DNA from: Macrostomum lignano
Lineage: Eukaryota
Direction of reading: 5' to 3'
DNA length: 56,275 nt
Assembly (NCBI GenBank): GCA_002269645.1
Contig: NIVC01001429.1
Location: 1-56,275 of the forward strand
The notes beneath the pieces are model-generated. The model ran no database searches. It saw only the letters and a program-made list of their open reading frames with translations, and was not told the origin of the DNA. Shown piece by piece: positions 3,190 through 54,000 of the stretch. Every line of letters starts with the position of its first letter. The stretch's first letter is position 1. The translations under genes were made by a program, and so were the position numbers.

Positions 3190-3420
3190 CAGGGAAAGCT
3201 GGGAAGATGGAAGGAACGGCATTTGGATATAGCCGTCTTTTGACGCTAGGCAGAAAGCCTGCAAATTGCTTTTTGAAGCAAGATTCCTCAAATGCATTGA
3301 GCAGACTTGCGTGGATGGCGATGGCTCAAAATATTTTCTTCTCAGCGCTATCAGCAACTTTTTCCTTATTTCATCGTCCTTTGGAAAAGTATGAAGGACA
3401 CTCCCGCCACACTCCCGCAA
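3190..3420 (-). pseudogene. THAP-domain fragment
   Basis: VLHTFPKDDEIRKKLLIALRRKYFEPSPSTQVCSMH matches the THAP pattern FP..W..(R)...VCSxH. The N-terminal CxxxC is missing. Confidence 0.6.
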
Positions 3421-3930
3421 CAAAATAGAACGCCGATTTACCGAGGTTGGCCTGAAGGTTGACGACGCCATAGTCAAGTCACGCCTCATCTCTGCGTTGC
3501 CGCCCCACATTCGCTCCGCACTCGTCGGACATGAGCACAGCCCGCTGGATAATTTTGCCAAGATCGCCGACAGCATGCTCGTAGTGGCCGGTCTACCCTC
3601 ACCATTTGCCGACATCAATCAGTTGTCCACTGCCGCTAATGCAGAGCAGCAACCGGCCCGGCATTTCTCCCGGCGACCTGACGCTCCGGCTCACGACGCC
3701 GACGGCAGCGACCACTCGTCTGCAATGCGCACATCTACTATGCCGGCAGAGCTCGAACTTGCCGACCCTGGTGCAAGTGGCCAGGTCCAAAGCCATCGAA
3801 CATGCTCCGCCAAGGTCAGCCGACACCCGCCCAGTCTCGCACGGCTTCGCCGACCCCAAACGAGTGAGTCATGTGCAGCGGCCGGGCCATGACAACGCAC
3901 AGGCCCGCACACCTATCGTTTCCGCTCAAA
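3420..3930 (+). mobile_element. Gypsy/Ty3 gag fragment
   Basis: KVDDAIVKSRLISALPPHIRSALVGHEHSPLDNFAKIADSML resembles the C-terminal gag region of Gypsy elements. A Gypsy integrase lies on the other side of the inserted TEs. Confidence 0.5.
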
Positions 3931-4160
3931 TACACCATTTTGCCTCCTATTTTGAACAAAGTCTTGTTCAAAAGAAACAAGCAGAACTTCAATTCAAACA
4001 CTTTAAGAAATATCAGCCCTTGCGGAAATTCAAATCAAACAAAGTCCTTTTCTATTGAAACAGACGAAATTCAATTCGATCAGACTGTCTGTGGCCAAAA
4101 TTGTCCCCCAGTGACGCGCATGCGCAGATTTTAAATTCAAAAGAAACAAAGTCACATTCT

Positions 4161-5706: not shown

Positions 5707-6186
5707 AAAGTCACATTCTATTTCGACAGAGATTTTTGCACATAGGTACAAGTACATTTTTAGTAATCTATTTTTTTTGTTTTTCCTGTACTGCATAACT
5801 GTACAATCGTTGCGCAACAAGAAACGATATGAATGCTGAAGATCAGATTGAAGAAGACGATGAATTGCTGGAACCAGCAAAATTTCATCGCTTCGATAGC
5901 TGAGCAGCACGGGAATCAGTCAATGGCGGCCTATCGGCGAGACATTCGTACAACATGGTGGACAGAACCATTGGCTGCATCTCTGTGAACAAGTGCATTG
6001 AGTGGTTCAACCATGTGTTTACATACGTCCCTCGCTGCGTTGGTGGACAGGTAATTGATGGTTAGGTGTCTTGCTCCTGTTTTTCATTTTAATCTTATGT
6101 TCGTCGATATGCTGTGTTTTATCCCTTTGTCGAAATAGAATGTGACTTTGTTTTTTTTTGAATTTCAAATCCGCGCATGCGCGTCA

Positions 6187-24300: not shown

Positions 24301-27300
24301 ATGAAGATGATTTATCACAAACACAAAAAGAGTATCTTAAAGTAGATAATGCAAAACACCTAGCAACAAAAAAATTAATATTAAATTTACATGATAAGAA
24401 AAACTATGTAGTGCATTATAAGCTTCTACAATTTTATGAAAAGCAGGGATTAAAAGTGTCTAAAGTACATCGAACAATATCGTTTATTGAGGAAGATTGG
24501 TTAGCTAAATATATTGACTTTAATTCAAATCAGAGACAGATGTCAAAAACAAATTTTGAGAAAGATTATTGGAAATTAATGAATAATGCTTTTTATGGAA
24601 AAACGGTTGAAAATATTAGAGATAGAACCCAATTCCATTTAGAAAAGGATATTGATAAAGCAAAGAAATATTTCTCAAAACCTAACTTTAAAGATTTTAT
24701 AAAATTTGATGATAACTTTATGGGTATTCATATGAGAAATAAAACAACAAAATTTCTTAAACCAATATTTATTGGAATGGTTGTTTTAGATTATGCAAAG
24801 CTAGTAATGTATGAATACTATTATGATGTTATAAATAAAACCTGGCCAGATAACTATCCAATATATGCAGACACTGACAGTTTGGTATTTAAGGTTGAAA
24901 CACCAGACGTTTATAAAGATATGGAAAAAATTAAGGATACATTGGATACCTCTGACTATCCGGATAACCATCCCTTAAAATCGAATCAAAATAAGAAAGT
25001 TGTACTTAAAATGAAAGATGAATTAAATAGCAAAATCATAACCGAGTTTATAGCAATAAGATCAAAATGCTATGCATTTAAAGTTTTAGGAGAGGAGGGA
25101 GAGGTAAAAAAAATAAAAGGGGTATCAAGGGCAGCAGTTAAAAAGATAACATTTGATGATTATAAAAACGTACTTTTAGATTACCTTAATACAATTGAAA
25201 ATTATCATGCTCCACAATATCGATTAAATTCAGATAAGCATCAGATGTTTGTCATCGAGACAGATAAAAAAACATTAAGTCCATTTGATGATAAAAGATA
25301 TTTAGATGATAAAATTAAAACATATCCATATGGTTTAAAAGAAGAGATAAAAAACATGATAAAAGATAAAAAACAAAAAGAAGATATAATAAGCAAATAT
25401 GATGAATACAAAGAGGCAATAAATAATTATTATTACGATTGTGATTGCGAATCCGAATGTGAATGTGAATATAATACATATCTAGAATATGAAAAAGATG
25501 TAGATAATTATTATGCAACATTTCCAAAAGAACTTAAAAAATTAAACAAGGAAAAAGTCTTGGATAACTGGAAGAGATTAACAGAAAAACTAATAACGGT
25601 AAAAAACTAAAGCATGTAATTGTTTAAGCATAATATCCATTTCCATTTCAAATTTTATAGAACACCAATTGTCCTCACAGTCGGCAGGAAAACTTAAACA
25701 ATCTTTTATTTTTTTCCTAAGTATTTTTATTCGTCTAACTAATCTATCTATTTCAATTTCAATTACTGTTTCAGCATAAGCAATTGCTTTTTGTATAAAA
25801 CGCTTTCTTTTATCCATCTCATATCGGATGGGAAACATATCGTCCCCATACTCACTATAAAACATTATATTTATTTTTTTATTAATATCTTTAAGTTCAC
25901 GCTCTTTAGCGATAAGGATTTTTAGCGTCTCCATTTTCTTATAAAAAATTTAAACTTATTCGGAGTCATTCTCCCAAACGGCAGCCAATTTTACAGTCCT
26001 GTCACTCTTTTTATTATTTGTTTGTTTTAGTTTAAATTGCAACCCACCCTCGCGGCTGTATTTCATAATGAACGCTTTAGGTTTATTAATAACTAAAACT
26101 GGAAAACTTTTAACATCATTCCCGCTTAGACATAGTATTGTTTGCCCATCTAATTGTAAAAATATCGATTGAATCCCAATAAATTTAACCTGTCTCAAAC
26201 ATATAATATTATATTCTTTATTCTCCAACATATTGGGGGTGAGATAATTAATCACATTAGAATCGGTTTTGAACCAGCTTTCCATTTTTAATATAAAAAA
26301 AAATAACAAAAAAATGAAAGACATTTACGAATGTAATAAATGTAATGTGGCCATGCATAGAGCCCAAACAGCAAACGGAGATATATATCATATGTGCTAT
26401 TCATGTTCTAAAATATATCAATTTGAAAAAACAAAAAAGATTGAAAACTCATATTACTATTTTAAAAACACAATTTTAAGAAATCTTTCAAGGGACATAT
26501 CTCATCCAATTTTAATTCCCGGAAATAATGTTTATTTATATAACAACTTTTTCCATTTAAATAAAGGAAAGGGATTAAGTTCGAAAGACGCTGAAAGGAT
26601 TTTAATTTTAGTTGGATATTATTTTAATTTTCTTATTCGAGAGAATACAAAGTTTATAAGGATAGGCAACATACCTAACGAAATGTTATTGAAAAGTCAT
26701 TGGAATTTTTATGTATTTATAAAAAATTTAAACCTACCAATTCACAAGAGAATTACCACTTTGGGAAGAATATATAACATATGCGTTAGAAAAACTAAAC
26801 AACATTAAGTTCTACAGCACTACCTGATCGCGGGCTTTGTTCCCCAGTAGAAATCGAACCTTCGGGTTCGTAAATACCTAATGTTTCTATCGGAGGTGCT
26901 TTGGGTTTGTCCAAACGTAATTCTTTTAATTCCCTATCGGTAAAAGTTTCAACATCCAAAATTCTATTTCGATCTTTTAAATATTTATCGTATAATTCCA
27001 CCGCGGTTGATAATTCATGAATTGTTATCTCTCCATCATCCAATATTTTTTGCACATATAAATATAACTGATTTTTATACTGTTTAGCAATATCTCTTAA
27101 TGATTTATATTTATCCTTTCTTTTTTTAAGATATAATTTAATTGCTAAAAGTATTGATAAATTTCTGATTAATTCAAATCCTGATATTGAACCAATTGAA
27201 ATACCTAAAAATAATTGAGATAAATTAAGAGTTGGAACAGACTGTAAAATACCTAAAACGATTACACATAACATTGATAAGCTTCCAAATCCAATATTGA

Positions 27301-30300
27301 AAAAATCCATATTTCTGATATGGTTTGAAACTCTTCTTACTTTTTTAGTATATAAATTATAATCATAGTTAATACGATCAACATTACTTAACAGGTGACC
27401 TTTACGTTGGTCGTGCATAGCACGCGAACCTTCGGTTCGGTTAAAATAGTCACGTTCCCTTTTATCTGCTTCAGACACCGACATTTTCGTCTATTTTTAA
27501 TAGCACTAAAATGAATTCCCCACGCTCTTTGGGGATTTGTCCCGAGCTCAATAGGTATTGTATCGGAGTGATTCTTTCTTTTTTCTCCCATTTAAATCCA
27601 ATTTTCCAAAACTATTGAAGGATAATATGGTTTTTTAATAATTTAATTAATTCTTGAAGTTTCTTATTATCCTGAACATTCACATTGCTAAATAAATATT
27701 TGGTATGAGATTTAAAAGTTTTTATATTTGATTCTTGTTTAGGAAAAGGAATAATAACATTATTTTGTCGAATCGATGGAGTTCTACTAAAAGCCATTTT
27801 TATATATAAATATTTAGGATATCATGCCACAGGCACGCATCTTAGGCGTTAGCCTAGGTGATCTGAGTTTGTGGCTGTTCCAAATATGCGGTCGCAGCAA
27901 AATCATAGCCGGCTGATGTGCTACCACAAACGGCAGCGCCACGAATAAAATGTGCAGCATCTGATCCTCCGGTTCGAGCACCAAAACCCATAAGAGTTCC
28001 ACTTTTATCCAAAGTTCCCCAAGTTCCGCTATCATATGTAAAAAAGTTTTGCCCAATTAGCGTATATGTTTTAGCTGAAACATTGTATGTGCTTATTTGA
28101 TACCAAATTCTTTGATTTAAAATATTAATTTCAAAAATATGCCAATCACCATTATCAATATTTGCATAAGTTATAGTTTGATCTGCGTCATTAAGAACAT
28201 CATTACGAACTGTTGCACGGTCTGATTTTATATTGCTCCAAAGAACTCCAACTCTATCATGCCACTCACTCGCAAACACTATTAAGCCGGCGGTGGTTCT
28301 TAATCCAGTTCCAAATTCACTTGTTGGTCGTTCGTGACAATATGCATAAAACCAAACCGCATCAGCTCCACTTCCTGTAGAATTCGCAACTCGGAAATAG
28401 AAGGAGGCGGAGATATTACGAAAATGGGTGAAATTAAATTGTAACGCTCCAGACCGACCAGATGCTTCATCAGTAATTCTAGCTCCATTTTGATAATCAA
28501 TATAAGAAGCATCTCCAACAAAACTTCCAGTTGGAAAAATATCACCGGCTGTGGTTGGGTTTTGATATCCAGTCCAATTGCAAATTACAGGCTCGTACAA
28601 AGCGGCATCAATCGCGGGTATTCCATCCAATTTTATTTTATCGTTAAAAGACATTCGGCCATCTGACGTTTGGGTTACTCGCGTATCAACATAACCTTTA
28701 GTAACAACAGAACTGTTATTGTTTATAGTAGAGATATTAGTAATTGTATTACCTCCCATATCAATTGATTGATTAACCACTCCTAAATTTAAATCAAGAA
28801 TTGTAAACGTCTGTCTATATATCTGGAAGGTTGACAGACCTGGGTTGGTTGAACCTGATGTTGATGTAAGACAGAACAATCTGAAATATGAATATGTTTT
28901 ATCAAAATTTTGTGTGACATTAATTGTTTGAGTTGAACTATTTATTACTACAGAACTATCCGCAGGTATTAACACATCCCAGCTCGTATTGTCATTACTC
29001 CCCTCAAATCGCCATGATGCTGGGTGCTCGGTTGAAGGTGATGGTCTCCCACGTAAATCAATTTTATAACACATTATCGCGGAAGGACATTGAACCTTAA
29101 TCCAATAATCGGTTTGAGTATTATTTGTTGCCCAATCTGTTGAATCATTACCATCAAACGCTTTCCTGCTTGCAAAATCAGTTGTATTAAAGGCGGTGCT
29201 TGCGGTTATTGCAAAACCATTTCCACTCCAATCTGTCATGGTAGGTACGTGGCCAGTTTCAACAGTTTGGAATCGATCCTGCTTTGGGGCTCCACCTCCA
29301 ACTAAATTATCAACCTCTGTTTTGGTATAAGAATCAGATATATCTCTTTTTAAATTTAAGGAATTATCAACCTCTGTTTTGGTATAGGAATCAGCAACAT
29401 TCCGTTTCAAATTTAGGGAATCATCTATTTGAGTTTTGGTATAAGAATCAGATATATCTCTTTTTAAATTTAATGAATTATCAACTTCAGTTTTGGTATA
29501 AGAATCAGATATATCTCTTTTTAAATTTAATGAATCATCTATTTGAGTTTTGGTATAGGAATCGGCAACATTCCGTTTCAAATTTAATGAAGTGTCGATT
29601 TGAGTTTTGGTATAGGAATCGGCAACATTTCTTTTTAAATTTAATGAATCATCTATTTGAGTTTTGGTATAGGAATCGGCAACATTTCTTTTTAAATTTA
29701 GTTTAGTATCAATTTCACTTTTTTTATAACCTTCATCTTCATTAATATATCGGTTGTTTCCGAATGTAACACTTATTCCACCACTTGTACCACCGCCAGT
29801 ACTTGATGTTCCGTTCCATGAGGGCGTTCCAGAAAATAACATTTTTTACTGTCTATTTTATAGAGTCTAAAATCGTGCCTTAGGCACGCATGCTTTGTAT
29901 GATATGTTTAAATACTTCTGGGTTTACACGAGCTTCATTCGAAAGTCGATATAAAAAATACAACGCCGCTTGCCCGCAATAACTTTTATCAAAGGTTTGA
30001 AATTGTTCGTGGTGATCTCCACATAAACGATTTTTAGTATGATTAAATTTGTCTTTTATTTCCTGTAACGGAGGAAGCGCGTATGAATCAAAAAAATAAA
30101 CAAGTTTGGGTTTTGAATAAACTGCTGACCAATGAGCGCCATTTTCTTTTGTAGTTTCAATATTAACAATGTAACATCCATATTGTGGTAAATCTTTGAT
30201 CTCATCTCGCATAACACATCTGAATGGTTTTATTTTTAATTGCCGCGCCCAATTTGTTAATTCGATATTGCTTGTTGTGTCTGTTCCATATCTTTGTTTA

Positions 30301-33300
30301 AAATCGCTCCACGTCAAAGTCATTTTATGTTCCTGAAAAACTCTTGGTTTTAGTTAGTTTCGTAGGTTTGGATTTTAACAGTTCCTTTCGGATTTTTTCT
30401 GCCTGTAATTGTTTTAATTTTGTTAGTTCGATTTCATAATTATCCTTTGCATTTTGAACTTTATTTGATTGTTTTTTTAAACTATTATTGTTACCCATTT
30501 TTACTATGGGAAACGGACGGAGTCCTCGACCCTACGGGGCGATTAAACTTGTTTTATACGTAAAATCACTGTTATTGACTGCCCACCAAAACTTATTAAT
30601 CTATCACTTTCATCTACGATCCTAATATAAATTGATTGAACGTTATATTGATTTAAAGGATAATATATGGGGGTTTGAGGTGAAACAATCATTTTCTCTC
30701 CAATTGGAACAGCAAGAAATGGGATTGAATAAATAATTCCACGTTGAACCAAAACTCCATTATCATCTGTTATATAACCACCGTTTGATATGTCGGTTGT
30801 TATATTAATTGTGTTGACTCCGCCCTCAATATTTCCCACCGTATCACCGGTGCTTGATGTGGTAACGATTCGGGAATTAAATCCAAGTATGGTTCTGAGT
30901 GAATTTGCAATTGTGAAATCAACCTGATATCCGGATCCTAGTGATAGCGTGAATCTGCCAGATGGTAAATCAACCCCTATAACAATTGCGCCCGATACCC
31001 AATCTCCATTAGCTGTTAATTCTCCTTCTATATAAGCATTCAAATCGGTATAGGAATATGCTCCTGGATTAACGCTAAATGTTGTCCAATTGGCTCCGGA
31101 ATCTTTAGAATATCTAAATTGATTATTTGTTGCATTAATTAATTGAGGCATGTGAAAAACAGAAAATAATATCAAACCTATTTGATAACTTAGGCTTTGA
31201 TCAAGTTGTAACGGATCGCGCAATTGAATCCGTTGCTCACTGGTTGTCATTATAAACTGTAAGGTTGTACTAAATTTTGAATTAGTTCGATCTACCAATT
31301 GTTTTATAGTATTTAAATTTGTTGCCATTTTTATAGTGGATAAAACTAAGTCTCTTCTTCCTCATTGTCCTCTTTTATCAGATCTTTTAAGATTCGATTT
31401 TTCCTTTCTAACCTAGGGTTGATATATATATGTTTGTATTGACTATCATCCCAAATTTTTTACACATACTTTTAAATGGTTTTGTATCCAACCCAGGATT
31501 AAATCTAGCGTGTATATTTTGTAAATCATAGTTATCTAAATCAAACATTACACAACAACTAGCATTCTTTTTTATAATCGATTCTAATTCTCTAAAGGAC
31601 TGTGTTAGATAAAAAGCTCCAATTCCATCTCCTCTACCACTAACAAAAATTTCCTTTTGCAATTCTTGATCGCCGTCATTAATACAATCATCAAAAATAA
31701 TTAGTGTTTTATCATTTTTTGGAATTTGATCATAGCCTAATCGGGTTGATACTCTAACAGTTGGGGATCGGACGGTGGTGTTTTCTGATATTTGTGCCGT
31801 TGTTTTACATAAATCCTCAATGTCTGCTAGATTAAATCGCGGTTCGTCATCATCCTCATATTGCTCATATGCTCTTAACATTCTAAACAAGACATCTTTT
31901 TTAATTTGTTTTTTAATCCATGTTTAAGAAATTCATAATATTTTATTTTAGGTTTGTTAGTATAAATTATTAAATTATTATAGTCTAGCATTCCATCGGT
32001 TGTTAACATGTCATAAACAAAGTGTGTCTTTCCTTTACCCGACCCACCGATTACTAAACAAAGAAAAGGATCATTTGGAAATATAATATTGTGCTTTGCT
32101 TTTACCATTTTTAAAGATAAAATTTTAAAGATAAAGATAAAATTTTACAGCGGGGCGTCCCGAACAATCGTGCCATCGGCTTTAGCAATTGACATATATT
32201 CCTCTAGAAACAATACGTGTGCGTCTATTGCCTGATTACCGGTTTTATTAATCTCTAACATGTAATTAAGTCCAACATTGGCTACATTTTCTTTCTGTGC
32301 AGTTAGATCATAAACAACCACTGGATGAATGTTTAGAAACTCTGTGGGTGTGTACTGAGGGACGGCATACGCTTCATTTTTGACATAATCTTGATAATAT
32401 TTTATAAAATCATTAACATTATTATTTGCTATATTTAGATTAAGAGGATCTTTAACTGGATAATATTGGTCATCAACCTGCAGGCGGATATTCTGAACAT
32501 TAAACTCGTTAATAGCTGCAACCTCATTGTCTGTTGCTGTGGCTGCTTGTGCTGCTACATCTCCTGATTGAAGCCAATATAAATCACCATTTGCTCTTTT
32601 ACTCCTTCTATTTGTTATCTTAAACCAAACAAAAATATATCTCACCCGACGTTTTGATGTCAGTATTTGCCACTGGAATGAATCCTGATTGTTATTAATG
32701 GTTCGCATAAAGTGTCTACGATTCAAATAAAATATTTCCTGATCATGCGTTAACTGATTATCGATATGTTTTAAAAGCGGAGCTGTTACCTCAATAGTTG
32801 GCACGACTAATTGTATTGATGCTATGCGAACTGCTATATCGGTTGAAATTGAGGTTCCATAAAGTATCCTAGGCTGATATCCACCAGATATTTGCAACTG
32901 TATCCCAAATTTTAATCCTTTCCATACCCGATTTGGTGAGAAGAACCCAAATAGTGGAAAGATTGAAAAGTCCTGCTCATATGCTGTTGCCGTGGTTAAA
33001 ACTGCAACTGGGAATTTATTCTGACGATCTATAAAACCAGTATTAATATCTTTTGTATTAGTCATAGTGGTTACAACTGGAACTATATTGGTATTAAGGT
33101 AAGCAATAAGAGCTGCAGTATCTGCACCAGCTGCGTTTTGTAAAAACTATTGGAAAAATGTGCATTTTGGGAAAACTACTGCTTGACCATTGCCCTTATC
33201 AGGCATCCACCCAACATTATCACCAACTTGTTTTGATAAATAAGTATAATTTAAATGTTTCAAAACTCCATTAATCTCTGCGGGGTTTGATGATGTCTCA

Positions 33301-36300
33301 ACCTCGGCTCCATTAACAGTTAGTTGAGCTTGAGAAAAACATTTATAAAACCAATCATTTTCTATTATTATTCCAGATCGATCTGCGATATCGCCGGCTG
33401 CAAGAGCAGTTCCATCATTTCTAGTATACAACCATCTAACGCGGAAGAATGCATTTTTCATATCCAATATGATGTTGGTTGCGCCGATGTCAAAAGCTAC
33501 CGTTCCACTAGTAAAGTTATTTGTATTATCACTTGTTGGTAGGGTATAATTTAAATCTCTTGCTATGACCTCATTAATATACTGTCGGTGCTTTTTGAAA
33601 TGAAATTTATCACTCCAAATAGTTTTTGTTTCAGCCATTTTTTTAAGTTAAAAAAGTTTTTTATGTTAAAAAATGAGTCAATTTATGGACGTTGATGGAG
33701 AGTTAGAGATTTATAAAGAAAAGCAAAGATATTCTGATTTTGTTAGAAATTTGCAAAAAAGAAAGTTAGGAATACAATTAGCTGGTGATAGATTTGCTGC
33801 TCCTTTTGTTAATCCTATTACTGGGAAAATTAGTGAACTAGAAAAAACAGATAAAGACCTTCTGGAAAAAATTGCTAAGAATACTGAGCCAAAAGAGGAT
33901 GTAATTTTGGATGAGCCGCCTGCTTATGGTGTTGCTCATGCACTATTGAGAATTGCAGAGATTAGACGTGCAGAAAGGAATGGAGTTGAACAATATCAGA
34001 GAGCTGCACCACAAAGTATTGCTGTGATGGATTTAGGTAATGATAATTATCGAATTGGTGGAGTTGATAAAAATCGTAATGAACTATATACAGAATTGGG
34101 TGGAGCGTTTAATATTATTATGAACCCTAGGGTAAAATTTAACCCCGATTTATATACTAGAGATGAATTAGTAAGTGCAAAAATTTTTTATGATGAGTTG
34201 GGAATAAGAGCTGCTAAAAATACCAGCTTGTATAAAAGGATTATTAATTCTATAAATAACAAACCAGTTGTTGGAGAAGGATTTAAAACTCCGCGAAAAC
34301 TTGTTTTAGCCGCTGCGAAAGCTGCTGGACATACAGGAATTAATTAATTTTTAAATTTATTTTTTATAAAATGGATGATGAAAAAATTAATATTAACGAT
34401 TTTATAAATTGGGATGAGATTCAAGAAATGATATCTATCGAGCTCAGTAAAGAGTTTCCTAGTGATATGACGTTTGATGATTGTGAAGATATGGGTGATT
34501 ATGAGCTTGAGCATAAAGATGGTAGATATTTTTTCTATGATTATTTTATAGAGGGTGCGCCAGAATCAATACGCATTGAAAATGTTAGTGAGAACAATAT
34601 TACAATTGGTGGTAGAAATTTTAATATAAAAGAATTAAAAGATGAATTAGGAAAAGATGCTTTCTATATTATAACACACCCAGCTGAGAATCCGTCTTTT
34701 GGACATAGATATAATGCTGAAGATATTGAGAAAGCTATAAGGTTTATTGAAAATAAATTGGATCCTGCTGCAAAATTAACTAAATTTTACATGTGGCTTG
34801 ATGATTGTGAAATTAATTTTTTATATAATGGAAACTAAAAAGATTTGTACTAAGTGTAAACAAGAGAAACTAATGAAGCGTAGATAATTGCTATAAAAAA
34901 GTTAAACAACCAACCATTGAAGAGTTTGCAAAACAATTAGTGCTATCATGTATTTTTAAGGCTATTAAAAATGAGCAATCAATTAGTATTTGAAGGAGGA
35001 TTTTTAGATGTTCAAAAAGGATTAACAAGCTTACCACCAATCTTTACTACTGGAAGGTATACAGGGGAACTACACCTACCATCAATGAACTTCGCAGGTT
35101 AACCCGTGGCCTGAGTGAGGAAGGCAATGTCCTTGCTAGTCACTATTTGTGGCGACATCTTCAAATTGCGTGAAACCCGTCATACAGCTTCAAGTACCAC
35201 TTCAATTGAGAAATCTTTTGAAGGAACAGAGGTAACTCCTCTTCCCAAAGGTAACAAGCTTGAAGACAAAGTGGCAATGCGCAGCCAAGCTCCTAAGTAT
35301 TTAAATATAAGGAGAAGGTTCAGAGAGCAGACGGAGGTGGGCGGTAATTTAGCCGCTTAAGGTGTGCTCCAGCCTATTTCGAAAGATTTAGGGCAAACTA
35401 CCCGGGACTAGGTTAGATTTGAGATTAAACCCTGATGACACTCCAAAAGCTGATTCAATTCCCATTAACGGTATTGATTGGTTAGCATACTATCATGACT
35501 TAGCATACAGAGATGCTGATAAGAACTCACCCGAGGAAGCATTAAGATTAAAGCATGAAGCCGATCGAAAAATGATTCAAGGATTAGATAACTTGCAGGG
35601 ATTATCGGTAGGCCAAAAATTAACTAGGTGGATGGTTAAAAAAATCTTACAGTCTAAAGTTAAATTTGGTTTGGGAATTAATTACAATCAACATGGAAAT
35701 AATTGTGTTGAGTGTTTATTATTAAGTGGTGGGTTAAGTTCTGATGAGGCAAAGATTCTTCATAAAGAATATCGAAAACCTAAATTTTATAGAAAAATCA
35801 TGAACTTCAAAAAGAATGAAATTTGGTATGCTGATTTAATGTCAATGCCGAGTGATAAAGGATATAAATATATTTTAACCATATTAGATGGTTTTACTCG
35901 ATACGCGTGGGCTGTTCCTTTGAAATCCAAAGAAGGAGAGGAGGTTGCTGCTGCTTTTAGAAGTCTTGGAGAAAAAAGCGAAAGATTATGTGTTGATGAG
36001 GGAAAAGAATTTTACAATCCTCACATGTATAAATTGTATCATTTTGAAAAAGGACAAGAAAGGAAAAAAGACGCGAATGGGGAGTATATTAATAAAATTT
36101 ATTCTATTTATGGAGAAAGTAAAAACGCATTAATAGAAAGATTTAATCGAACTTTGGGGAAGAAATTGTGGTTTCAGTTTAGTCTTAATGGAAATCAAAA
36201 GTGGGTAAAAATATTACCAGACGTCGTGAAAGATTATAACAATTCATATCATTCGGCTATCGTTCCTTCGGAACGCGGACTTCGTACGAAAAAGATGACT

Positions 36301-42554: not shown

Positions 42555-45500
42555 CAATTTCATTCCCTGCCGCTGATGAGGTGGGGAACCACTTTCCTAA
42601 CGACGGCGGGGTTTACACAGCGCATGCAATTAAACAGCACTAGACATGCCCGTAACTATGGGGGTGAGGGCTAGACGGATAGACTTAGCGGATTACTCTG
42701 GTTGCGTTAGAGCATCTGGGGGAGCTCAGTTCACTGTCCTTCTGTGCGGGCCGGCCCACGCATCCACCCCTCGGTTGCCACGCCAGTCGGGGTTGGGCGT
42801 CGGTCCCGGGCCTGCCCGCAGCTCCTCCCCAGGAGCGGCCTCCGCGCCGGGCTCATTAAGAATTCGCCTCGCATTTGATGTCTGTCTGAAATTGATGGAA
42901 GCTGCTGTAGCTTTGCCATGCGCTGCGTGCACTATTGTATGCTCAGCCTATGCCCATTTCTATTGTTCTGGCTTAATTTCTAAACCCTATAGAGGGGGTC
43001 GGGGCCCATGCAGGGACTTATAGAAGTAGCACCACTTGACTTGAAGCACAGACCAATAAGTATAAGCAAGCTTCCGGCTCGCTGCTCTCTTTTGATTTAC
43101 AAAATGCAGCGAAATCAACTTCGCGAGCTGCGGCTGCGGTGGGAGTCTTCCGTTTCTTTTCAGCTTTCGGCAGCAGATGGTCAGGGAAAGCTGGGAAGAT
43201 GGAAGGAACGGCATTTGGATATAGCCGTCTTTTGACGCTAGGCAGAAAGCCTGCAAATTGCTTTTTGAAGCAAGATTCCTCAAATGCATTGAGCAGACTT
43301 GCGTGGATGGCGATGGCTCAAAATATTTTCTTCTCAGCGCTATCAGCAACTTTTTCCTTATTTCATCGTCCTTTGGAAAAGTATGAAGGACACTCCCGCC
43401 ACACTCCCGCAACAAAATAGAACGCCGATTTACCGAGGTTGGCCTGAAGGTTGACGACGCCATAGTCAAGTCACGCCTCATCTCTGCGTTGCCGCCCCAC
43501 ATTCGCTCCGCACTCGTCGGACATGAGCACAGCCCGCTGGATAATTTTGCCAAGATCGTGGAGAGTATGCTCGTAGTGGCTGGTCTACCCTCACCATTCG
43601 CCGACATTAATCAGTTGTCCACTGCCGCTAATGCAGAGCAGCAACCGGCCTGGCATTTCTCCCGGCGACCCGACGCTCCGGCTCACGACGCCCAGCCTCT
43701 CCGACGGCAGCGACCACTCGTCTACAATGCGCACATCTACTATGCCGGCAGAGCTCGAACTTGCCGACCCTGGTGCAAGTGGCCAGGTCCAAAGCCATCG
43801 AACATGCTCCGCCAAGGTCAGCCGACACCCGCCCAGTCTCGCACGGCTTCGTCGACCCCAAACGAGTGAGTCATGTGCAGCGGCCGGGCCATGACAACGC
43901 ACAGGCCCGCACACCTATCGTTTCCGCTCAAATACACCATTTTGCCTCCTATTTTGAACAAAGTCTTGTTCAAAAGAAACAAGCAGAACTTCAATTCAAA
44001 CACTTTAAGAAATAACAGCCCTTGCGGAAATTCAAATCAAACAAAGTCCTTTTCTATTGAAATAGACGAACTTCAATTCAGACTGTCTGTGGCCAAAATT
44101 GTCCCCGAGTGACGCGCATGCGCAGATTTTAAATTCAAAAGAAACAAAGTCACATTCTTGACTTACTTGACTTAGCTGCAGGGGGCGTCCGGCGGATGCA
44201 GCGAGGAGGCGGAGGAGACCGCCCATTCCGCTAGCCCCTGGCGACCAAAGACTTCCATCGAAGTGATGTCGCTCAGGGGGACTCGTCGGTCTCGCCTGCA
44301 GCGCGTTCCTCCTCACCGGCGGTGGGGAAGAGATCAGCTCGTCCCGTGTCCCTGAGCTACCGGGCGAGCAGCGGGATGCTCTCGGGCCTGCAAACGTCGG
44401 AGAGAACCGGGTTTGGCCCGAGGTGAGTGAGCCTGGCCCTGGTGAAAACCGGGCAGTGGCAGATAAAGTGCTCGGCGTTCTCACTGCCTGAGCGGCAGAA
44501 GGGGCACCGCTCCTCGGGTACTTGGCCCTGAAGGAACCGGTGGCGAGAGAAGCAGCCATGCCCGGAGAGGGCCATGCTAACTGCTCTGAGGTCTCTGCGG
44601 TTGAGCCTGAGGAGGGCTCTACGCAGGAGAGGAGAGGGCAGGGGACGGCCGCACGGGATTGCCTACAATTCCGGGTGTCGTGCCACCTGCGGAGATGCTC
44701 GGAGTCAGTCCAGCGCTTAACGCGGGAGTTGATCACCGAGGCGGGGATGGGGGCTCCCGGGCCCGGCCCCAGCAGCGCGCCGGCGGAGCCAGCCTTGGCC
44801 AGCAGGTCAGCGCGCTCGTTGCCGAGGAAGCCGGCGTGGCCCGGGATCCATCTGAGCTCCACCTGGTTGCCTAGCGCAAGCCCGTTGAGCTGGGTGTTGC
44901 AGTCCAGGACGGACCTGGAGCTGGCGGTGCTGCGGCAGAGGGCCCGAAGGGCTGCTTGGCTGTCAGAGTGAAAAATAAATTTCCGACCGCTGAGCTGCCT
45001 TCGGCGCAGCTCTGCCGCGCAGGAACTGATGGCAAGCACCTCGCTCTGAAAAACACTGGAGTTGGGCCCAGTGTGCTAGGAGTAGCTCCACACCACTTCT
45101 CCCTTGAAGAAGACGCAAGCTCCGAAGCCTGAAAGACCATGCCTCATAGAGCCGTCAGTGTAACAGTGGACTTCAGAATCGCTCCAGCTGTCGCTCGCCT
45201 CGTGTCGAGGCTGAACAGTGACCTTATACCTTTGGCTCAGGAGAAGGGTGGCTGGGATCGAGTCCGTGAGGATGTTGAGCCCGCCACACTCCTCGAGAGC
45301 CTTGAGGCAAAGGTCAGAGTGCGGGATAAGCGACCGCTTCTTAAAGGCCCGCACATTTTTGAAGGCCACCCCAGCATCCAGAAGACGCCGGGTGCTCTTC
45401 GCCGCCTCTCCTTTGATATAAATATCCAGAGGAGGGGTGCAGAGGAAGGCATTCATGCCTTCAAAAGGAGTAGAGGGTGGAGCGCCCATAGTAATGCGGC

Positions 45501-47412
45501 AAGCTCTGCCCTGGATTTTGTAGAGAGCGTCGAGGTTGCTCTTGACGCTCAGGCCGCTAGCCCACACGAGGCTGGCGTAACTGATCGAGGGGCGGATGAT
45601 GGCAGTGTAAATCCACCACAGCTTCCTGGGGGTGAGCCCCCAGGTGGTGCCCACGGCGCTCCTGGTCTGAGCCAGGACAGCTAGGGCTTTTTTGGCTTTA
45701 GTTTGAAAGTCACATTCTATTTCGACAGAGATTTTTGCACATAGGTACAAGTACATTTTTAGTAATCTATTTTTTTTGTTTTTCCTGTACTGCATAACTG
45801 TACAATCGTTGCGCAATAAGAAACGATATGAATGCTGAAGATCAGATTGAAGAAGACGATGAATTGCTGGAACCAGCAAAATTTCATCGCTTCGATAGCT
45901 GAGCAGCACGGGAATCAGTCAATGGCGGCCTATCGGCGAGACATTCGTACAACATGGTGGACAGAACCATTGGCTGCATCTCTGTGAACAAGTGCATTGA
46001 GTGGTTCAACCATGTGTTTACATACGTCCCTCGCTGCGTTGGTGGACAGGCAATTGATGGTTAGGTGTCTTGCTCCTGTTTTTCATTTTACTCTTATGTT
46101 CGTCGATATGCTGTGTTTTATCCCTTTGTCGAAATACGGTAGAATGGTAGATTGTATAGTATGCAACTGAGTTGAATAATGGAACTTTGTTCAAAATAGG
46201 AGGTAAAATGGTGTACTTTTACCTCCACCGCCTTACCACCCAGGTGTGAAGGCCACGCTGCGTTTAGTCGCCCATCATTTTTTCTGGCCATGCATGAAAT
46301 CAGACATACAGCGCTGGACGGCAGAGTGCACACAATGTCAATCAGCGAAAATCGGTCGTCATGTTCGCCGACCACTGCACCACCTGCCTGCACCTACACA
46401 GCGGTTCACAACGGTCCACATGGATTTAGTCGGACCGCTCCCGGTGCCGGACCCAACCGAAACAGCTGCATTCTTAGCCGCGGTATTTACTAACCATCGT
46501 GGACTCGTACTCCCGCTGGGTCGAAGCAATCCGATTGCAATCGATCACCAGTACGGTTGTTGCACAAGCCTTTGTCGCCCACTGGGTTTGTCGATTTGGC
46601 CCACCGTTAACACTCATCACAGACCAAGGAGCTCAATTTCGCTCGGACCTAATGGCAAACCTGGTGAATCTTCTCGGCGTCCATCACATCCGCACAGCCG
46701 CATATAATCCTAAGGCCAACGGCATGATCGAGCGAGTTCATCGCACACTGAAGGCCAGCCTCAGAGCTCGCGGCCGGTGCTGGCTTAACCAGCTGCCCAT
46801 CGTTTTAATCGGATTGCGCATTAACTCGACGACCAGGGTCACTCGCCATTCTCAATCGTCACGGAAGAACAGCCGCTAGTTTCACCGGTCACAACTGATG
46901 ACGACGACCAGCGTCAGCTGTCGACTCAACTACACGACCTGTTTTTCCCGTACCGCCCGCCGCGGACCCGTCAGCAGCCTGTCCACATACCTCCGGAGCT
47001 GGAATCTTGCGAGTTTATGTGGCTCCGAGTTGACAGAGTTAAGCAACCACTCGAGGCGCCATATCAAGGACCCTACAAGGTGTTGCGACGCTCAGCGACC
47101 ACCGTGACGCTCGTCTTAAAAGGCAAGCCCCAGGCCGTTTCCATCGAGAGAGTGAAGCCGGCAGTGCTACCGGACAGTCAGCGCCAGACCCGAGCAATGA
47201 CGAGAGAGGCACGGCCGGACAAGCCAGCGACTACCCCTGCGAAGAAACAGCGTCCCGCGAAGGAAACCCAACGCTTTCGTTTTTCCGAGAAGCCAACGGT
47301 TCATGTTATTGATTATTGATCAACAATCCCTTATCGAACACTCAAAAACAAACAGGAATAAATTAACCCTACTGATCGCGAAATATCGTTTATAGTTGTT
47401 CGCTTTTCCGTT
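42555..47412 (+). mobile_element. Second copy of the gag-MITE-LINE-integrase stack (LINE ~44160-45705, integrase ~46215-47319); inverted copy at ~48265-52995
   Basis: Same translations as 2563-10520. Confidence 0.9.
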
Positions 47413-48083: not shown

Positions 48084-51000
48084 TGGAAGCGTATATTTTA
48101 GTTTTTGATAAATCATTAAAATAATACGGCATATTTAAACTGCTTGATTGTTTAATAAATTTACCACATAAATTTAAATGTTTAGCAATCCGAGTCCCAA
48201 GGCAAAAGGCAACAATTAATACAGCGGGCCCAAAAGTCTAACAGTATTCTTAGTAACTCTGAATGAAAAACGAAAGCGTTGGGTTTCCTTCGCGGGACGC
48301 TGTTTCTTCGCAGGGGTAGTCGCTGGCTTGTCCGGCCGTGCCTCTCTCGTCATTGCTCGGGTCTGGCGCTGACTGTCCGGTAGCACTGCCGGCTTCACTC
48401 TCTCGATGGAAACGGCCTGGGGCTTGCCTTTTAAGACGAGCGTCACGGTGGTCGCTGAGCGTCGCAACACCTTGTAGGGTCCTTGATATGGCGCCTCGAG
48501 TGGTTGCTTAACTCTGTCAACTCGGAGCCACATAAACTCGCAAGATTCCAGCTCCGGAGGTATGTGGACAGGCTGCTGACGGGTCCGCGGCGGGCGGTAC
48601 GGGAAAAACAGGTCGTGTAGTTGAGTCGACAGCTGACGCTGGTCGTCGTCATCAGTTGTGACCGGTGAAACTAGCGGCTGTTCTTCCGTGACGATTGAGA
48701 ATGGCGAGTGACCCTGGTCGTCGAGTTAATGCGCAATCCGATTAAAACGATGGGCAGCTGGTTAAGCCAGCACCGGCCGCGAGCTCTGAGGCTGGCCTTC
48801 AGTGTGCGATGAACTCGCTCGATCATGCCGTTGGCCTTAGGATTATATGCGGCTGTGCGGATGTGATGGACGCCGAGAAGATTCACCAGGTTTGCCATTA
48901 GGTCCGAGCGAAATTGAGCTCCTTGGTCTGTGATGAGTGTTAACGGTGGGCCAAATCGACAAACCCAGTGGGCGACAAAGGCTTGTGCAACAACCGTACT
49001 GGTGATCGATTGCAATCGGATTGCTTCGACCCAGCGGGAGTACGAGTCCACGATGGTTAGTAAATACCGCGGCTAAGAATGCAGCTGTTTCGGTTGGGTC
49101 CGGCACCGGGAGCGGTCCGACTAAATCCATGTGGACCGTTGTGAACCGCTGTGTAGGTGCAGGCAGGTGGTGCAGTGGTCGGCGAACATGACGACCGATT
49201 TTCGCTGATTGACATTGTGTGCACTCTGCCGTCCAGCGCTGTATGTCTGATTTCATGCATGGCCAGAAAAAATGATGGGCGACTAAACGCAGCGTGGCCT
49301 TCACACCTGGGTGGTAAGGCGGTGGAGGTAAAAGTACACCATTTTACCTCCTATTTTGAACAAAGTTCCATTATTCAACTCAGTTGCATACTATACAATC
49401 TACCATTCTACCGTATTTCGACAAAGGGATAAAACACAGCATATCGACGAACATAAGAGTAAAATGAAAAACAGGAGCAAGACACCTAACCATCAATTGC
49501 CTGTCCACCAACGCAGCGAGGGACGTATGTAAACACATGGTTGAACCACTCAATGCACTTGTTCACAGAGATGCAGCCAATGGTTCTGTCCACCATGTTG
49601 TACGAATGTCTCGCCGATAGGCCGCCATTGACTGATTCCCGTGCTGCTCAGCTATCGAAGCGATGAAATTTTGCTGGTTCCAGCAATTCATCGTCTTCTT
49701 CAATCTGATCTTCAGCATTCATATCGTTTCTTATTGCGCAACGATTGTACAGTTATGCAGTACAGGAAAAACAAAAAAAATAGATTACTAAAAATGTACT
49801 TGTACCTATGTGCAAAAATCTCTGTCGAAATAGAATGTGACTTTCAAACTAAAGCCAAAAAAGCCCTAGCTGTCCTGGCTCAGACCAGGAGCGCCGTGGG
49901 CACCACCTGGGGGCTCACCCCCAGGAAGCTGTGGTGGATTTACACTGCCATCATCCGCCCCTCGATCAGTTACGCCAGCCTCGTGTGGGCTAGCGGCCTG
50001 AGCGTCAAGAGCAACCTCGACGCTCTCTACAAAATCCAGGGCAGAGCTTGCCGCATTACTATGGGCGCTCCACCCTCTACTCCTTTTGAAGGCATGAATG
50101 CCTTCCTCTGCACCCCTCCTCTGGATATTTATATCAAAGGAGAGGCGGCGAAGAGCACCCGGCGTCTTCTGGATGCTGGGGTGGCCTTCAAAAATGTGCG
50201 GGCCTTTAAGAAGCGGTCGCTTATCCCGCACTCTGACCTTTGCCTCAAGGCTCTCGAGGAGTGTGGCGGGCTCAACATCCTCACGGACTCGATCCCAGCC
50301 ACCCTTCTCCTGAGCCAAAGGTATAAGGTCACTGTTCAGCCTCGACACGAGGCGAGCGACAGCTGGAGCGATTCTGAAGTCCACTGTTACACTGACGGCT
50401 CTATGAGGCATGGTCTTTCAGGCTTCGGAGCTTGCGTCTTCTTCAAGGGAGAAGTGGTGTGGAGCTACTCCTAGCACACTGGGCCCAACTCCAGTGTTTT
50501 TCAGAGCGAGGTGCTTGCCATCAGTTCCTGCGCGGCAGAGCTGCGCCGAAGGCAGCTCAGCGGTCGGAAATTTATTTTTCACTCTGACAGCCAAGCAGCC
50601 CTTCGGGCCCTCTGCCGCAGCACCGCCAGCTCCAGGTCCGTCCTGGACTGCAACACCCAGCTCAACGGGCTTGCGCTAGGCAACCAGGTGGAGCTCAGAT
50701 GGATCCCGGGCCACGCCGGCTTCCTCGGCAACGAGCGCGCTGACCTGCTGGCCAAGGCTGGCTCCGCCGGCGCGCTGCTGGGGCCGGGCCCGGGAGCCCC
50801 CATCCCCGCCTCGGTGATCAACTCCCGCGTTAAGCGCTGGACTGACTCCGAGCATCTCCGCAGGTGGCACGACACCCGGAATTGTAGGCAATCCCGTGCG
50901 GCCGTCCCCTGCCCTTCTCCTCTCCTGCGTAGAGCCCTCCTCAGGCTCAACCGCAGAGACCTCAGAGCAGTTAGCATGGCCCTCTCCGGGCATGGCTGCT

Positions 51001-54000
51001 TCTCTCGCCACCGGTTCCTTCAGGGCCAAGTACCCGAGGAGCGGTGCCCCTTCTGCCGCTCAGGCAGTGAGAACGCCGAGCACTTTATCTGCCACTGCCC
51101 GGTTTTCACCAGGGCCAGGCTCACTCACCTCGGGCCAAACCCGGTTCTCTCCGACGTTTGCAGGCCCGAGAGCATCCCGCTGCTCGCCCGGTAGCTCAGG
51201 GACACGGGACGAGCTGATCTCTTCCCCACCGCCGGTGAGGAGGAACGCGCTGCAGGCGAGACCGACGAGTCCCCCTGAGCGACATCACTTCGATGGAAGT
51301 CTTTGGTCGCCAGGGGCTAGCGGAATGGGCGGTCTCCTCCGCCTCCTCGCTGCATCCGCCGGACGCCCCCTGCAGCTAAGTCAAGTAAGTCAAGAATGTG
51401 ACTTTGTTTCTTTTGAATTTAAAATCTGCGCATGCGCGTCACTCGGGGACAATTTTGGCCACAGACAGTCTGAATTGAAGTTCGTCTATTTCAATAGAAA
51501 AGGACTTTGTTTGATTTGAATTTCCGCAAGGGCTGTTATTTCTTAAAGTGTTTGAATTGAAGTTCTGCTTGTTTCTTTTGAACAAGACTTTGTTCAAAAT
51601 AGGAGGCAAAATGGTGTATTTGAGCGGAAACGATAGGTGTGCGGGCCTGTGCGTTGTCATGGCCCGGCCGCTGCACATGACTCACTCGTTTGGGGTCGAC
51701 GAAGCCGTGCGAGACTGGGCGGGTGTCGGCTGACCTTGGCGGAGCATGTTCGATGGCTTTGGACCTGGCCACTTGCACCAGGGTCGGCAAGTTCGAGCTC
51801 TGCCGGCATAGTAGATGTGCGCATTGTAGACGAGTGGTCGCTGCCGTCGGAGAGGCTGGGCGTCGTGAGCCGGAGCGTCGGGTCGCCGGGAGAAATGCCA
51901 GGCCGGTTGCTGCTCTGCATTAGCGGCAGTGGACAACTGATTAATGTCGGCGAATGGTGAGGGTAGACCAGCCACTACGAGCATACTCTCCACGATCTTG
52001 GCAAAATTATCCAGCGGGCTGTGCTCATGTCCGACGAGTGCGGAGCGAATGTGGGGCGGCAACGCAGAGATGAGGCGTGACTTGACTATGGCGTCGTCAA
52101 CCTTCAGGCCAACCTCGGTAAATCGGCGTTCTATTTTGTTGCGGGAGTGTGGCGGGAGTGTCCTTCATACTTTTCCAAAGGACGATGAAATAAGGAAAAA
52201 GTTGCTGATAGCGCTGAGAAGAAAATATTTTGAGCCATCGCCATCCACGCAAGTCTGCTCAATGCATTTGAGGAATCTTGCTTCAAAAAGCAATTTGCAG
52301 GCTTTCTGCCTAGCGTCAAAAGACGGCTATATCCAAATGCCGTTCCTTCCATCTTCCCAGCTTTCCCTGACCATCTGCTGCCGAAAGCTGAAAAGAAACG
52401 GAAGACTCCCACCGCAGCCGCAGCTCGCGAAGTTGATTTCGCTGCATTTTGTAAATCAAAAGAGAGCAGCGAGCCGGAAGCTTGCTTATACTTATTGGTC
52501 TGTGCTTCAAGTCAAGTGGTGCTACTTCTATAAGTCCCTGCATGGGCCCCGACCCCCTCTATAGGGTTTAGAAATTAAGCCAGAACAATAGAAATGGGCA
52601 TAGGCTGAGCATACAATAGTGCACGCAGCGCATGGCAAAGCTACAGCAGCTTCCATCAATTTCAGACAGACATCAAATGCGAGGCGAATTCTTAATGAGC
52701 CCGGCGCGGAGGCCGCTCCTGGGGAGGAGCTGCGGGCAGGCCCGGGACCGACGCCCAACCCCGACTGGCGTGGCAACCGAGGGGTGGATGCGTGGGCCGG
52801 CCCGCACAGAAGGACAGTGAACTGAGCTCCCCCAGATGCTCTAACGCAACCAGAGTAATCCGCTAAGTCTATCCGTCTAGCCCTCACCCCCATAGTTACG
52901 GGCATGTCTAGTGCTGTTTAATTGCATGCGCTGTGTAAACCCCGCCGTCGTTAGGAAAGTGGTTCCCCACCTCATCAGCGGCAGGGAATGAAATTGTAGA
53001 GCTCATAAATATCCGCAAACTGGAAGCCCAAAGAGGCACTTTTCTCCACTTATGGCCTCTCGGCTTCTCGGCTGGTTCTAGATTTAGAAATGTAACATTA
53101 AAGAAAACATCTCCTCCGGTCTTGTCATTTGCTCCACCGCTGTTGGATGGCAGAAGATAAACGGTGTTTGAACATCGAAAACATCGCGTAATACCCTCCC
53201 AGTTTTTACGCCTCCCAACCATAGCAGGCCTCCCCAACCATAGCAGAGGAAGAGAAGGGTTAGGGGTAGAGAGTGAATTGAAGTGCGATCGGGTATTCTG
53301 TGCCAGAATACTTCATTTGAGATTCGTATTCAAGATGTTCTCAGGTTGGGGCGCTTTCATTAGGCCGAAATTTCACTTCGCCGAAAAGCAGCCTCTTTCA
53401 ATAGGCCGAAACTTCACTTTGCCGAAATGACTAGCACGCTCTTTCATAAGGCCGAAACTTCACTAGGCCGAAACTTCACATTGCCGAAAATCATTTTAGC
53501 AGCCTCTTTCACTAGGCCGAAACTTCACATTGCCGAAAAATCATCTTAGCAGCATCCTTACTATGGTCGAAAGGGGATGTGAACTTAAGCTTCCAAAATG
53601 AAACCGCAAGCAAGCAGTGACGATTTCTCTGCACCAGTTTCTTTATTTTGACCTAAGTGTTACTGCTACTAAAGTGGGAGCACGATATGGTCACTCAGTT
53701 TTTCTGTCTCAGTCGGATGAACTTTTAAGTTTTAGAGTGCTCGTATGTTGTTTTAAGGCTCCTTTGAAAGTATGCAGATTTGCCTGGATTCCGATTCATA
53801 GAATATGCATGGCTCTTAGTCTCTAATTCTTTGGCTTCTGTGAAATTCAACCCGTATGTTTTAGTATCAAAAAGACAATGTAAAATAGTATATTATTTTT
53901 TATATGCCCCATATTCTCTCTCCTCTCTTCCCCATTTTTTCTTAATTTGCTCGCTCATACCTTTCAGTCTAGCCGCTAGCGGGAACGAGCCCCATGCAGG

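Follow-up and report, generated by a model that had tools for sequence, protein, structure and literature searches.

What is a group I intron, a kind of catalytic RNA, doing inside a protein gene of a virus-like transposon in the nuclear genome of an animal? The question is raised by a 56,275-nt stretch of the flatworm Macrostomum lignano (contig NIVC01001429.1 of assembly GCA_002269645.1; this whole stretch is called the window below), in which an integrated Polinton carries such an intron within its PLA2-integrase gene. The explanation that we consider fairly probable is that this Polinton lineage possesses a short-site endonuclease and is immune to it through avoidance of the site combined with the ribozyme; we infer both the cutting and the splicing. 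Coordinates are those of the window, and features lie on the forward strand unless stated otherwise.

The intron occupies positions 35100–35400. A preliminary description made from the letters alone had read this insertion correctly: exon 1 (34971–35099, 43 codons) runs from the ATG at 34971 to HLPSMNFAG, is followed by a 301-nt insert that starts with TAA, and the protein resumes with PGTRLDL at 35401. Exon 2 (35401–36576) bears the PLA2 YYHD motif and the rve integrase core, with a stop at 36379–36381, and an intron-less homologue of the PLA2 gene (L059) matches Pfam Phospholip_A2_4 (E 6.3e-7). The intron separates the Gly from the Pro in the G-P-G loop of PLA2. It has an IC1-like core with P2, P2.1 and P5abc, contains no open reading frame (ORF) and ends in A. 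Rfam Intron_gpI (RF00028) matches 35090–35391 with 57.8 bits (gathering threshold 50; E 4e-12) and is the sole RNA family to reach the gathering level within the window. Minimum free energy is uninformative (z = -1.21; 13/100 shuffles fold equally well).

Comparison across copies is more telling. With the Tetrahymena intron and its layout as the homologous guide, we assigned 92 base pairs and counted covariation on 38 distinct rows from 65/66 loci (L056 was left unparsed). Over these pairs 3260/3489 cells are paired, against 39–49% when partners are shifted by 1–2 columns. Changes on both sides are seen in 30/92 pairs, spread over P2, P3, P4, P5a, P5c, P7 (four pairs), P8 and P9, with part of them contributed by a single metagenomic row, L077. 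In P1 (35095–35113) the exon sequence CAGGU pairs with the guide GCCUG and places U35099.G35109 at the 5′ splice site; these pairs are unchanged in 38/38 distinct rows, and exon 1 ends in CAGGT in all 66 matches. The first pair of P10 (intron strand 35103–35108) is G-C in 37/38 rows. P7 (35323–35370, around the 3′ strand of P3 and P8) contains the guanosine-binding pair G35325-C35369, which is retained in 36/38 rows; three other P7 pairs switch jointly between subfamilies, on both sides and in 12–13 rows, with the binding G-C unchanged. The segment 35371–35400 comprises P9.0 (AG/CU), a GAAA-capped P9 and the terminal A. P2.1 is a hairpin at 35139–35153, the loop of which is the site of an Eco47II-like ORF in a related subfamily and in L077. 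The class assignment follows the customary list of IC1 hallmarks, the Rfam score having come from the general model: P2/P2.1, P5abc with its A-rich bulge, a GAAA loop in L5b and the P4/P6 signature CGCAGCCAAG are all present and covarying. One helix had been misplaced, since the register of P5 is CCGUC/GGUGG (35177–35181 with 35270–35274) rather than GUCAU/GUGGC, and 12 rows have U-A as the next pair up.

Natural alleles lacking the intron are precise. Four loci (L059, L060, L063 and L065) read FxG-PGT unbroken, and precise absence extends to L101 and L105; both intron boundaries are fixed because these alleles read continuously across the site. Among 150 PLA2 relatives listed from other sources, 95 have G-P-G-T across the insertion point. 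The 3′ site after A35400 is set by P9.0 (A35371-U35399 and G35372-C35398), by P10, by the reading frame and by the intron-less alleles. Two other boundaries were tried and rejected: a 3′ site at G35391 falls within P9 and forfeits P9.0 and P10, and a spliceosomal intron from GT35098 to AG35391 would leave exon 2 out of frame. The covariance-model match, the covariation and the intron-less alleles together substantiate a group I, IC1-like ribozyme in the PLA2-integrase gene.

The intron belongs to a large family. Exon 2 has 511 candidate places in the assembly (150 scored), and a genome DNA search, in which 40 of 206 candidates were scored and 30 loci cut out, found the intron in 30/30 of those loci. 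When the genome was searched with Rfam, 28 places were scored; all exceed the cut-off (72.7–91 bits) and immediately precede the same exon 2, here from a more distant subfamily (about 57% protein identity) with introns of 836–895 nt whose P2.1 loop contains an ORF. The 5′ site also serves a second intron, which has an IE-like core and has P2-P2.1 and P5abc in common with the first (L061, L062, L070 and L074); the two that were scanned score 41.6–42.9 bits, under the Rfam cut-off. The IE-like intron (L061:390–725) also shares P1 with the IC1-like one and looks like a chimeric ribozyme. Covariation extends to its P1 (exon CGGGU, guide GCCCG). Any of three G residues could mark its 3′ end, and this type may account for about 20 exon-2 rows that start at residue 3. 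The first intron, together with the ORF, also sits at the same codon in an unrelated contig of metagenomic origin (L077; 80.6 bits), the one confirmed locus among 591 candidates in a metagenome scan. Single-protein scans of viral contigs yielded no endonuclease and one 18-residue match to PLA2, and among the 129 loci of two DNA-motif scans only L127 was intron-like and none had Polinton genes. L127 is a giant-virus RPB2 gene in which a group I intron (L127:2985–3302) follows an exon ending in CAGGT and has the guide GGCCTGAGT, as in the Polinton intron; on sequence grounds, and from this one locus, its lineage is a possible source of the Polinton intron.

Why this codon pair? Gly-Pro is always encoded as GGN-CCN, so a GGNCC at the PLA2 Gly-Pro lies beyond synonymous removal. 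The spliced junction would read GGT-CC. GGNCC is absent from the 17.8-kb element of the window (0 versus 15.6 expected) and occurs as expected in its host flanks (127 versus 127, about one per 300 bp). It is likewise absent from 8.9 kb of an element with intron plus ORF (0 versus 9.6 expected). A 17.6-kb intron-less element has two: the PLA2 Gly-Pro accounts for one, and the other, at position 82, was taken as flank and trimmed before pooling. In the pooled 42 kb there is 1 GGNCC versus 38 expected, a ratio of 0.026, and the next lowest of the 256 words of form XYnZW stands at 0.68. That sole site is the PLA2 Gly-Pro of the intron-less allele, exactly at the intron insertion point.

The avoidance reaches into the proteins. 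Gly-Pro occurs 0 times versus 8.8 expected in 4843 residues, with Pro-Gly occurring 6 times, and synonymous shuffles contain 4.7 GGNCC on average and none in 1/300. Controls behave ordinarily: low-GC host tiles have 6 versus 6.3 expected, a third Polinton family of the same genome (L105) has 16 versus 20.7, and PLA2 fusions of other organisms have 16 Gly-Pro versus 17 expected. Two further control candidates (L103 and L104) held no Polinton genes and were dropped.

A candidate for the agent of this purge accompanies the intron. Related copies encode an Eco47II-like PD-(D/E)xK endonuclease, either in the P2.1 loop of the intron or free-standing directly upstream of exon 1; the window copy has neither form. 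The intron ORF matches Pfam RE_Eco47II (PF09553) with E 1.4e-5 and 25.2 bits, 0.7 under the cut-off of 25.9, a second Polinton enzyme scores 23.8 bits against the same cut-off (E 3.7e-5), and the relative P0004 exceeds it. An AlphaFold model (pLDDT 89) has EcoO109I as its best match in the PDB (E 2.1e-4, template-modelling score 0.66), and in this model the endonuclease is a 166-residue fold without an extra DNA-binding domain. EcoO109I recognizes RG^GNCCY (PMC3089450) and an Eco47II homologue has been linked to GGNCC (PMC10305163). The predicted endonuclease site thus named spans the intron insertion junction. The D-E-K catalytic triad is invariant (11/11), and the ratio of nonsynonymous to synonymous change (dN/dS) is 0.28 for the in-intron form (10 distinct copies) and 0.31 for the free-standing one (5 copies). 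The genome holds 112 endonuclease matches. The free-standing form of the close family, a 63–67% relative, lies just 5′ of exon 1 (L068–L071 and L075), and each free-standing copy paired by hand with an exon-2 match shows an intron-sized gap (37/37; 444–508 nt versus about 182). The preliminary description, right about an intron in a Polinton, had missed both this associated restriction-type endonuclease and the GGNCC purge.

Several observations touch the endonuclease from the side. A short frame, MEQIAGEILLKAIF, about 500 nt 5′ of the intron-less PLA2 gene (L059:373–420; L101:170–215) resembles the endonuclease start and may be a remnant of it or a chance likeness. Many 7–65 kb contigs of the European Nucleotide Archive (ENA) encode close relatives of the endonuclease, and several of these read on through the core of the ribozyme; there is also a 42-aa protein that ends exactly at HIPGYSFAG. 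These sequences (P0002 cluster, 30 members; P0009 cluster, 9; P0190) suggest that the same intron-bearing Polintons occur in other eukaryotes.

More distant relatives, with 28–37% identity, are viral: 22 loci, many in giant-virus bins. All 22 retain GGNCC, the 11 loci scanned with Rfam have no intron, and a C5 methyltransferase stands alongside in 13/13 of those scanned with Pfam. No methyltransferase was found among the 15 window ORFs compared with Pfam or on the endonuclease contigs, and the 12 methylase matches of the genome lie on 9 contigs, none of which bears the endonuclease. The adjacent cognate methyltransferase by which a type II restriction-modification system is recognized was thus not found beside the Polinton enzymes.

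We propose that a flatworm Polinton lineage carries a selfish or competitive module of two parts, one of them the group I intron. The Polinton enzyme would cut GGNCC, as its family does, and the lineage would escape its own enzyme by losing GGNCC. At the PLA2 Gly-Pro, the one site that the needs of the protein hold in place, the intron would break the site in DNA, and RNA-catalysed splicing would restore the codons in mRNA only; intron-bearing elements would be immune without methylation because the intron breaks their last GGNCC. Relatives without the intron retain a single site, at the point of insertion, and cleavage there may drive homing or block replication; host DNA would be cut too if the enzyme were made during replication. 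Interference by a phage intron enzyme has been shown (PMC11620839), and cutting of host DNA during replication has been proposed for chlorovirus enzymes (PMC7019647). The window copy would be an ORF-less, decaying passenger ending in A. A fuller version, to which we give about even credence, is 'restriction without modification' in a Polinton lineage that infects animals: a giant-virus enzyme taken without its methyltransferase, GGNCC erased, Gly-Pro banned, and ribozymes of two core types encrypting the last Gly-Pro.

A number of facts weigh against this proposal. The Polinton enzyme scores just under the curated Pfam cut-off, and specificity can drift within an endonuclease family. Intron-less, enzyme-less elements (L101/L102) avoid GGNCC too; the avoidance is therefore lineage-wide, and an outside enzyme would explain it equally. 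The intron-less allele with an intact GGCCC is present at 19 genomic copies, so the site is not always lethal. The co-occurrence of free-standing enzyme and intron (37/37) is weak evidence because nearly all close copies carry the intron anyway, and in most close copies the slot upstream of PLA2 holds an HNH gene rather than an Eco47II-like gene. A five-base cutter would be toxic in the nucleus and presumably has to be kept silent wherever the element is integrated. The window's element is short of CCNGG as well (9 versus 24.4 expected), and L100–L102 are not. CASTG is under-represented there as well (5 versus 16.6 expected in 19860–37690), and a second enzyme may have acted on this element. 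Finally, the selection estimates given below for copies ending in A are pairwise dN/dS values over related, recombining copies and may partly predate that ending, and exons may be ligated more slowly where a terminal A meets a G-C binding pair that has stayed the same.

The main rival attributes the purge to an outside giant-virus enzyme: a helper or competing giant virus with GGNCC restriction-modification would have selected site loss in a virophage-like Polinton, the intron would have been kept for hiding the last site, and the Polinton's own enzyme would be a later, secondary capture. The viral relatives beside C5 methyltransferases, many in giant-virus bins, are what such an account expects, as is the avoidance in L101/L102; the giant-virus RPB2 intron of L127 has the same CAGGU/GGCCUG P1 and a related HNH gene; and methylases of Polinton-like viruses (PLVs) have been proposed as a shield against giant-virus restriction enzymes (PMC12220804). 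Against it, purifying selection acts on the Polinton enzyme in both of its genomic positions, the genome holds 112 matches to it, and the enzyme occurs with the same intron in another organism's element (L077; P0001–P0003 and P0007, whose C-termini read through the ribozyme). This analysis also identified no giant virus of M. lignano. On balance we think outside pressure an unlikely origin of the purge.

A second doubt concerns splicing. Group I introns end almost universally in G (omega-G). Here the last base, 35400, is A (omega-A), a point that the preliminary description overlooked. Across 65 copies the terminal base is A in 27 and G in 38: A in 27/37 and G in 10/37 of the close family, and G in 27/27 parsed copies of the subfamily with the ORF in the intron. 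The A state requires 4–5 changes on both intron and exon trees, which contradicts the omega-A copies forming one clade. It could be that the window's omega-A form no longer splices and that such copies are non-autonomous, borrowing PLA2-integrase from omega-G or intron-less elements. The near-universal terminal G with an unchanged P7 pocket, the two further in-frame stops of the window copy and the uniform G of the ORF-in-intron subfamily all favor that reading. Yet A is the majority state in the close family and arises on diverse backgrounds, and exon 1 is open in 27/27 omega-A copies, with dN/dS of 0.26 (17 distinct open sequences); over the first 50 codons of exon 2, before the next ATG, dN/dS is 0.09 (9 distinct open of 21). 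Published omega-A introns splice, namely Diderma L2066 (PMC3679873) and sea-anemone ND5-717 (PMC8146996). We regard loss of splicing in these copies as improbable.

That expression of the PLA2 part depends on splicing, as had been claimed at the outset, is a supported reading of the sequence: there is no in-frame ATG between 35392 and 35572, and the exons are under purifying selection; splicing itself we infer. Four sequence-run contig sets (three presumed RNA, from three studies, and one of uncertain kind) contained no 35099–35401 joint; they cover intron and exons alike, and their sole joint is a 94-nt skip, 34801–34896, in the fourth run. These RNA contigs are short and come from a polymorphic multicopy family; they show presence and not absence, and the junction result counts neither way. 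An exact look-up of six natural proteins for spliced forms among cluster members returned 0/6.

Ordinary homing is a still less probable account. The ORF would be a long-site homing endonuclease like I-Ssp6803I with GGNCC merely the core of its target, and the intron a plain parasite in a Goddard-Burt cycle, its ORF-less omega-A copies mobilized by a neighboring HNH or Eco47II-like gene. In-intron, free-standing, ORF-less and intron-less states do coexist, a second, IE-like intron sits at the same 5′ site, and long-site PD-(D/E)xK homing enzymes exist (PMC3424549). Moreover, the third position of the Gly codon is T in 0/52 junction-motif matches and yet in all intron-bearing exons. A long, unique site gives no reason for an element-wide purge of GGNCC or Gly-Pro, though, and the modeled fold offers no extra DNA-binding domain. 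Long-site homing accounts for the gene arrangements and not for the purge; element-wide avoidance points to a short site.

That the contig is a protist or fungal contaminant, a possibility named beforehand as fatal to the animal claim, or that the fold is a chance artefact as its modest z might hint, has next to no probability. The 6-bp target duplication of the element sits inside a flatworm SLC26 gene whose frame continues beyond it, which rules out a contaminant; candidate places for exon 2 recur across the assembly, and the helices covary.

The insertion itself is well defined. The whole Polinton spans 19860–37690 (17,831 bp, no strand assigned) and has the structural marks of Polinton/Maverick elements: terminal inverted repeats (about 310 nt), AGT-repeat ends (AGTAGT), a 6-bp target duplication (CATGGC at 19854–19859 on the left and 37691–37696 on the right) and a length of 15–20 kb. 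It splits a host SLC26 sulfate-transporter ORF (18311–19859; Pfam Sulfate_transp, E 1e-89), the product of which is 100% identical to P0010, named Macrostomum lignano by its source. The disrupted ORF is long, single-exon and prestin-like, and its frame runs at least 50 codons past the element, from 37691 onward. Terminal inverted repeats, target duplication and flanking gene thus uphold the initial reading of an endogenous Polinton in an animal nuclear genome.

Within the element, Pfam finds the rve integrase just under its cut-off (E 1.6e-7) and a weak, sub-threshold Pox_A32 ATPase (E 0.0096). The ORF at 22395–25610 we take to be the protein-primed DNA polymerase B from motifs such as DANNLYG and YADTDS; its Pfam match is to the endonuclease VII domain only. 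On the reverse strand, 29880–33638 presumably encodes protease, penton, packaging ATPase and a major capsid frame, the ATPase being the Pox_A32 match and the other labels assumed from motifs and gene order. The copy is decaying: one in-frame stop interrupts the integrase frame at 36379–36381 and another the putative capsid frame at its codon 164. A 662-aa ORF (27854–29842, reverse strand) combines 19-residue tandem repeats with an F5/8 type C domain (E 1.9e-11) and is likely a fibre or receptor-binding protein.

The slot 5′ of PLA2 is variable. In the window it holds a 155-aa ORF (34371–34838), weakly similar to the ORF at 33673–34347, and an internally deleted remnant of a free-standing HNH/endonuclease VII-like gene (34828–34978), so neither endonuclease is intact. 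In most close copies an HNH/endonuclease VII-like gene (L002:1022–1591) overlaps the PLA2 start; it resembles an ORF among the introns of the giant-virus RPB2 gene L127 (25–34% identity, E 2e-8). Its protein has no match in the 90% database, and its profile and atlas matches are weak. Copies of a palindromic insert of roughly 30 nt (TCGGACTTCGTCCGCGAACC-type) are found within the intron, where PLA2 begins and inside the integrase gene (L069, L075, L032 at the P5c-P5a junction and elsewhere, and the window at about 36262–36292); the insert resembles a small mobile hairpin. Farther out, a GC-rich element of about 3–6 kb is present in three copies, one inverted, with matching ORF patterns (2600–5900, 42200–45900 and 49600–53300), and the host flank has tandem arrays of 23-nt and 37–38-nt units at 14000–14340 and 16880–17660.

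How does this system compare with known ones? Nuclear group I introns have been described from rRNA genes of microbial eukaryotes. Group I introns were already reported from protist PLVs (Rhodomonas lacustris, Paulinella micropora and Desmodesmus armatus; PMC12220804), where they are described as restricted to few protist groups. Those introns are similar in matching RF00028, in length (about 300–380 nt) and in residing in small dsDNA elements of eukaryotic nuclei (PMC12220804); what differs here is the bilaterian host, the PLA2-integrase gene and the accompanying endonuclease with its target purge. Nuclear rDNA introns of classes IC1 and IE (Tetrahymena Tth.L1925 and Diderma L2066) share the P1–P10 layout, P2/P2.1, P5abc, the A-rich bulge and the GAAA loop, and Diderma L2066 also ends in A and self-splices (PMC3679873). 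They reside in rRNA genes of microbial eukaryotes, with endonuclease genes in P1, P2, P6, P8 or P9 loops (PMC3679873), whereas the intron here splits protein-coding sequence in a virus-like element of an animal, and what its relatives encode, in P2.1, is an enzyme of the restriction type. The hexacoral mitochondrial ND5-717 is likewise an omega-A group I intron in an animal protein gene (PMC8146996); it is mitochondrial and non-bilaterian, whereas the Polinton intron is nuclear-integrated, multicopy and viral.

Chloroviruses combine self-splicing introns in protein genes of a eukaryotic DNA virus with short-site restriction enzymes, which are thought to degrade host DNA (PMC7019647). There the enzyme is always beside a methyltransferase and unconnected to introns, whereas no methyltransferase was found in the Polintons and protection apparently comes from site loss plus intron. 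Phage enzymes of intron or collaborative homing (I-Ssp6803I and I-Bth0305I, PMC3424549; PMC11296320; PhiPA3 gp210, PMC11620839) also lie in or beside group I introns, with a target broken by the intron and a possible use against co-infecting relatives; their sites are long and rare, in contrast to the five-base site, purged genome-wide in an animal element, to which the evidence here points. Type II enzymes of the Eco47II family (PF09553) and EcoO109I share sequence family, fold, triad and probably the GGNCC-core site, and differ from the Polinton enzyme in its intron residence, its eukaryotic virus-like host and the want of any cognate methyltransferase found. In our literature search, which covered subscription journals incompletely and supplements not at all, neither animal Polintons nor bilaterian nuclear genes turned up with a group I intron, and no Polinton was found to pair a restriction enzyme with avoidance of its site. 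Each component is of a known kind; what seems to be new is the host and the logic that links the components.

If the fuller version of this interpretation is true, no catalytic intron system would have been described earlier from the nuclear genome of a bilaterian, and a replicative, competitive or host-DNA-degrading viral phase would follow for animal Polintons. A five-base cutter suits a replicating virus and not a quiet transposon, which bears on whether animal Polintons have a true viral phase, and the GGNCC purge would preserve, like a fossil, the trace of an enzyme that has worked on Polinton DNA. The intron would serve its carrier by conferring immunity where methylation otherwise does so, and free-standing and intron-borne stages of one endonuclease would be seen within one genome. 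In this family omega-A and omega-G variants occur naturally next to each other, and it supplies new ribozymes as well as a small enzyme that is a candidate for restriction activity; with hundreds of candidate copies in a protein gene of a laboratory flatworm, group I splicing of mRNA in animal cells becomes directly testable.

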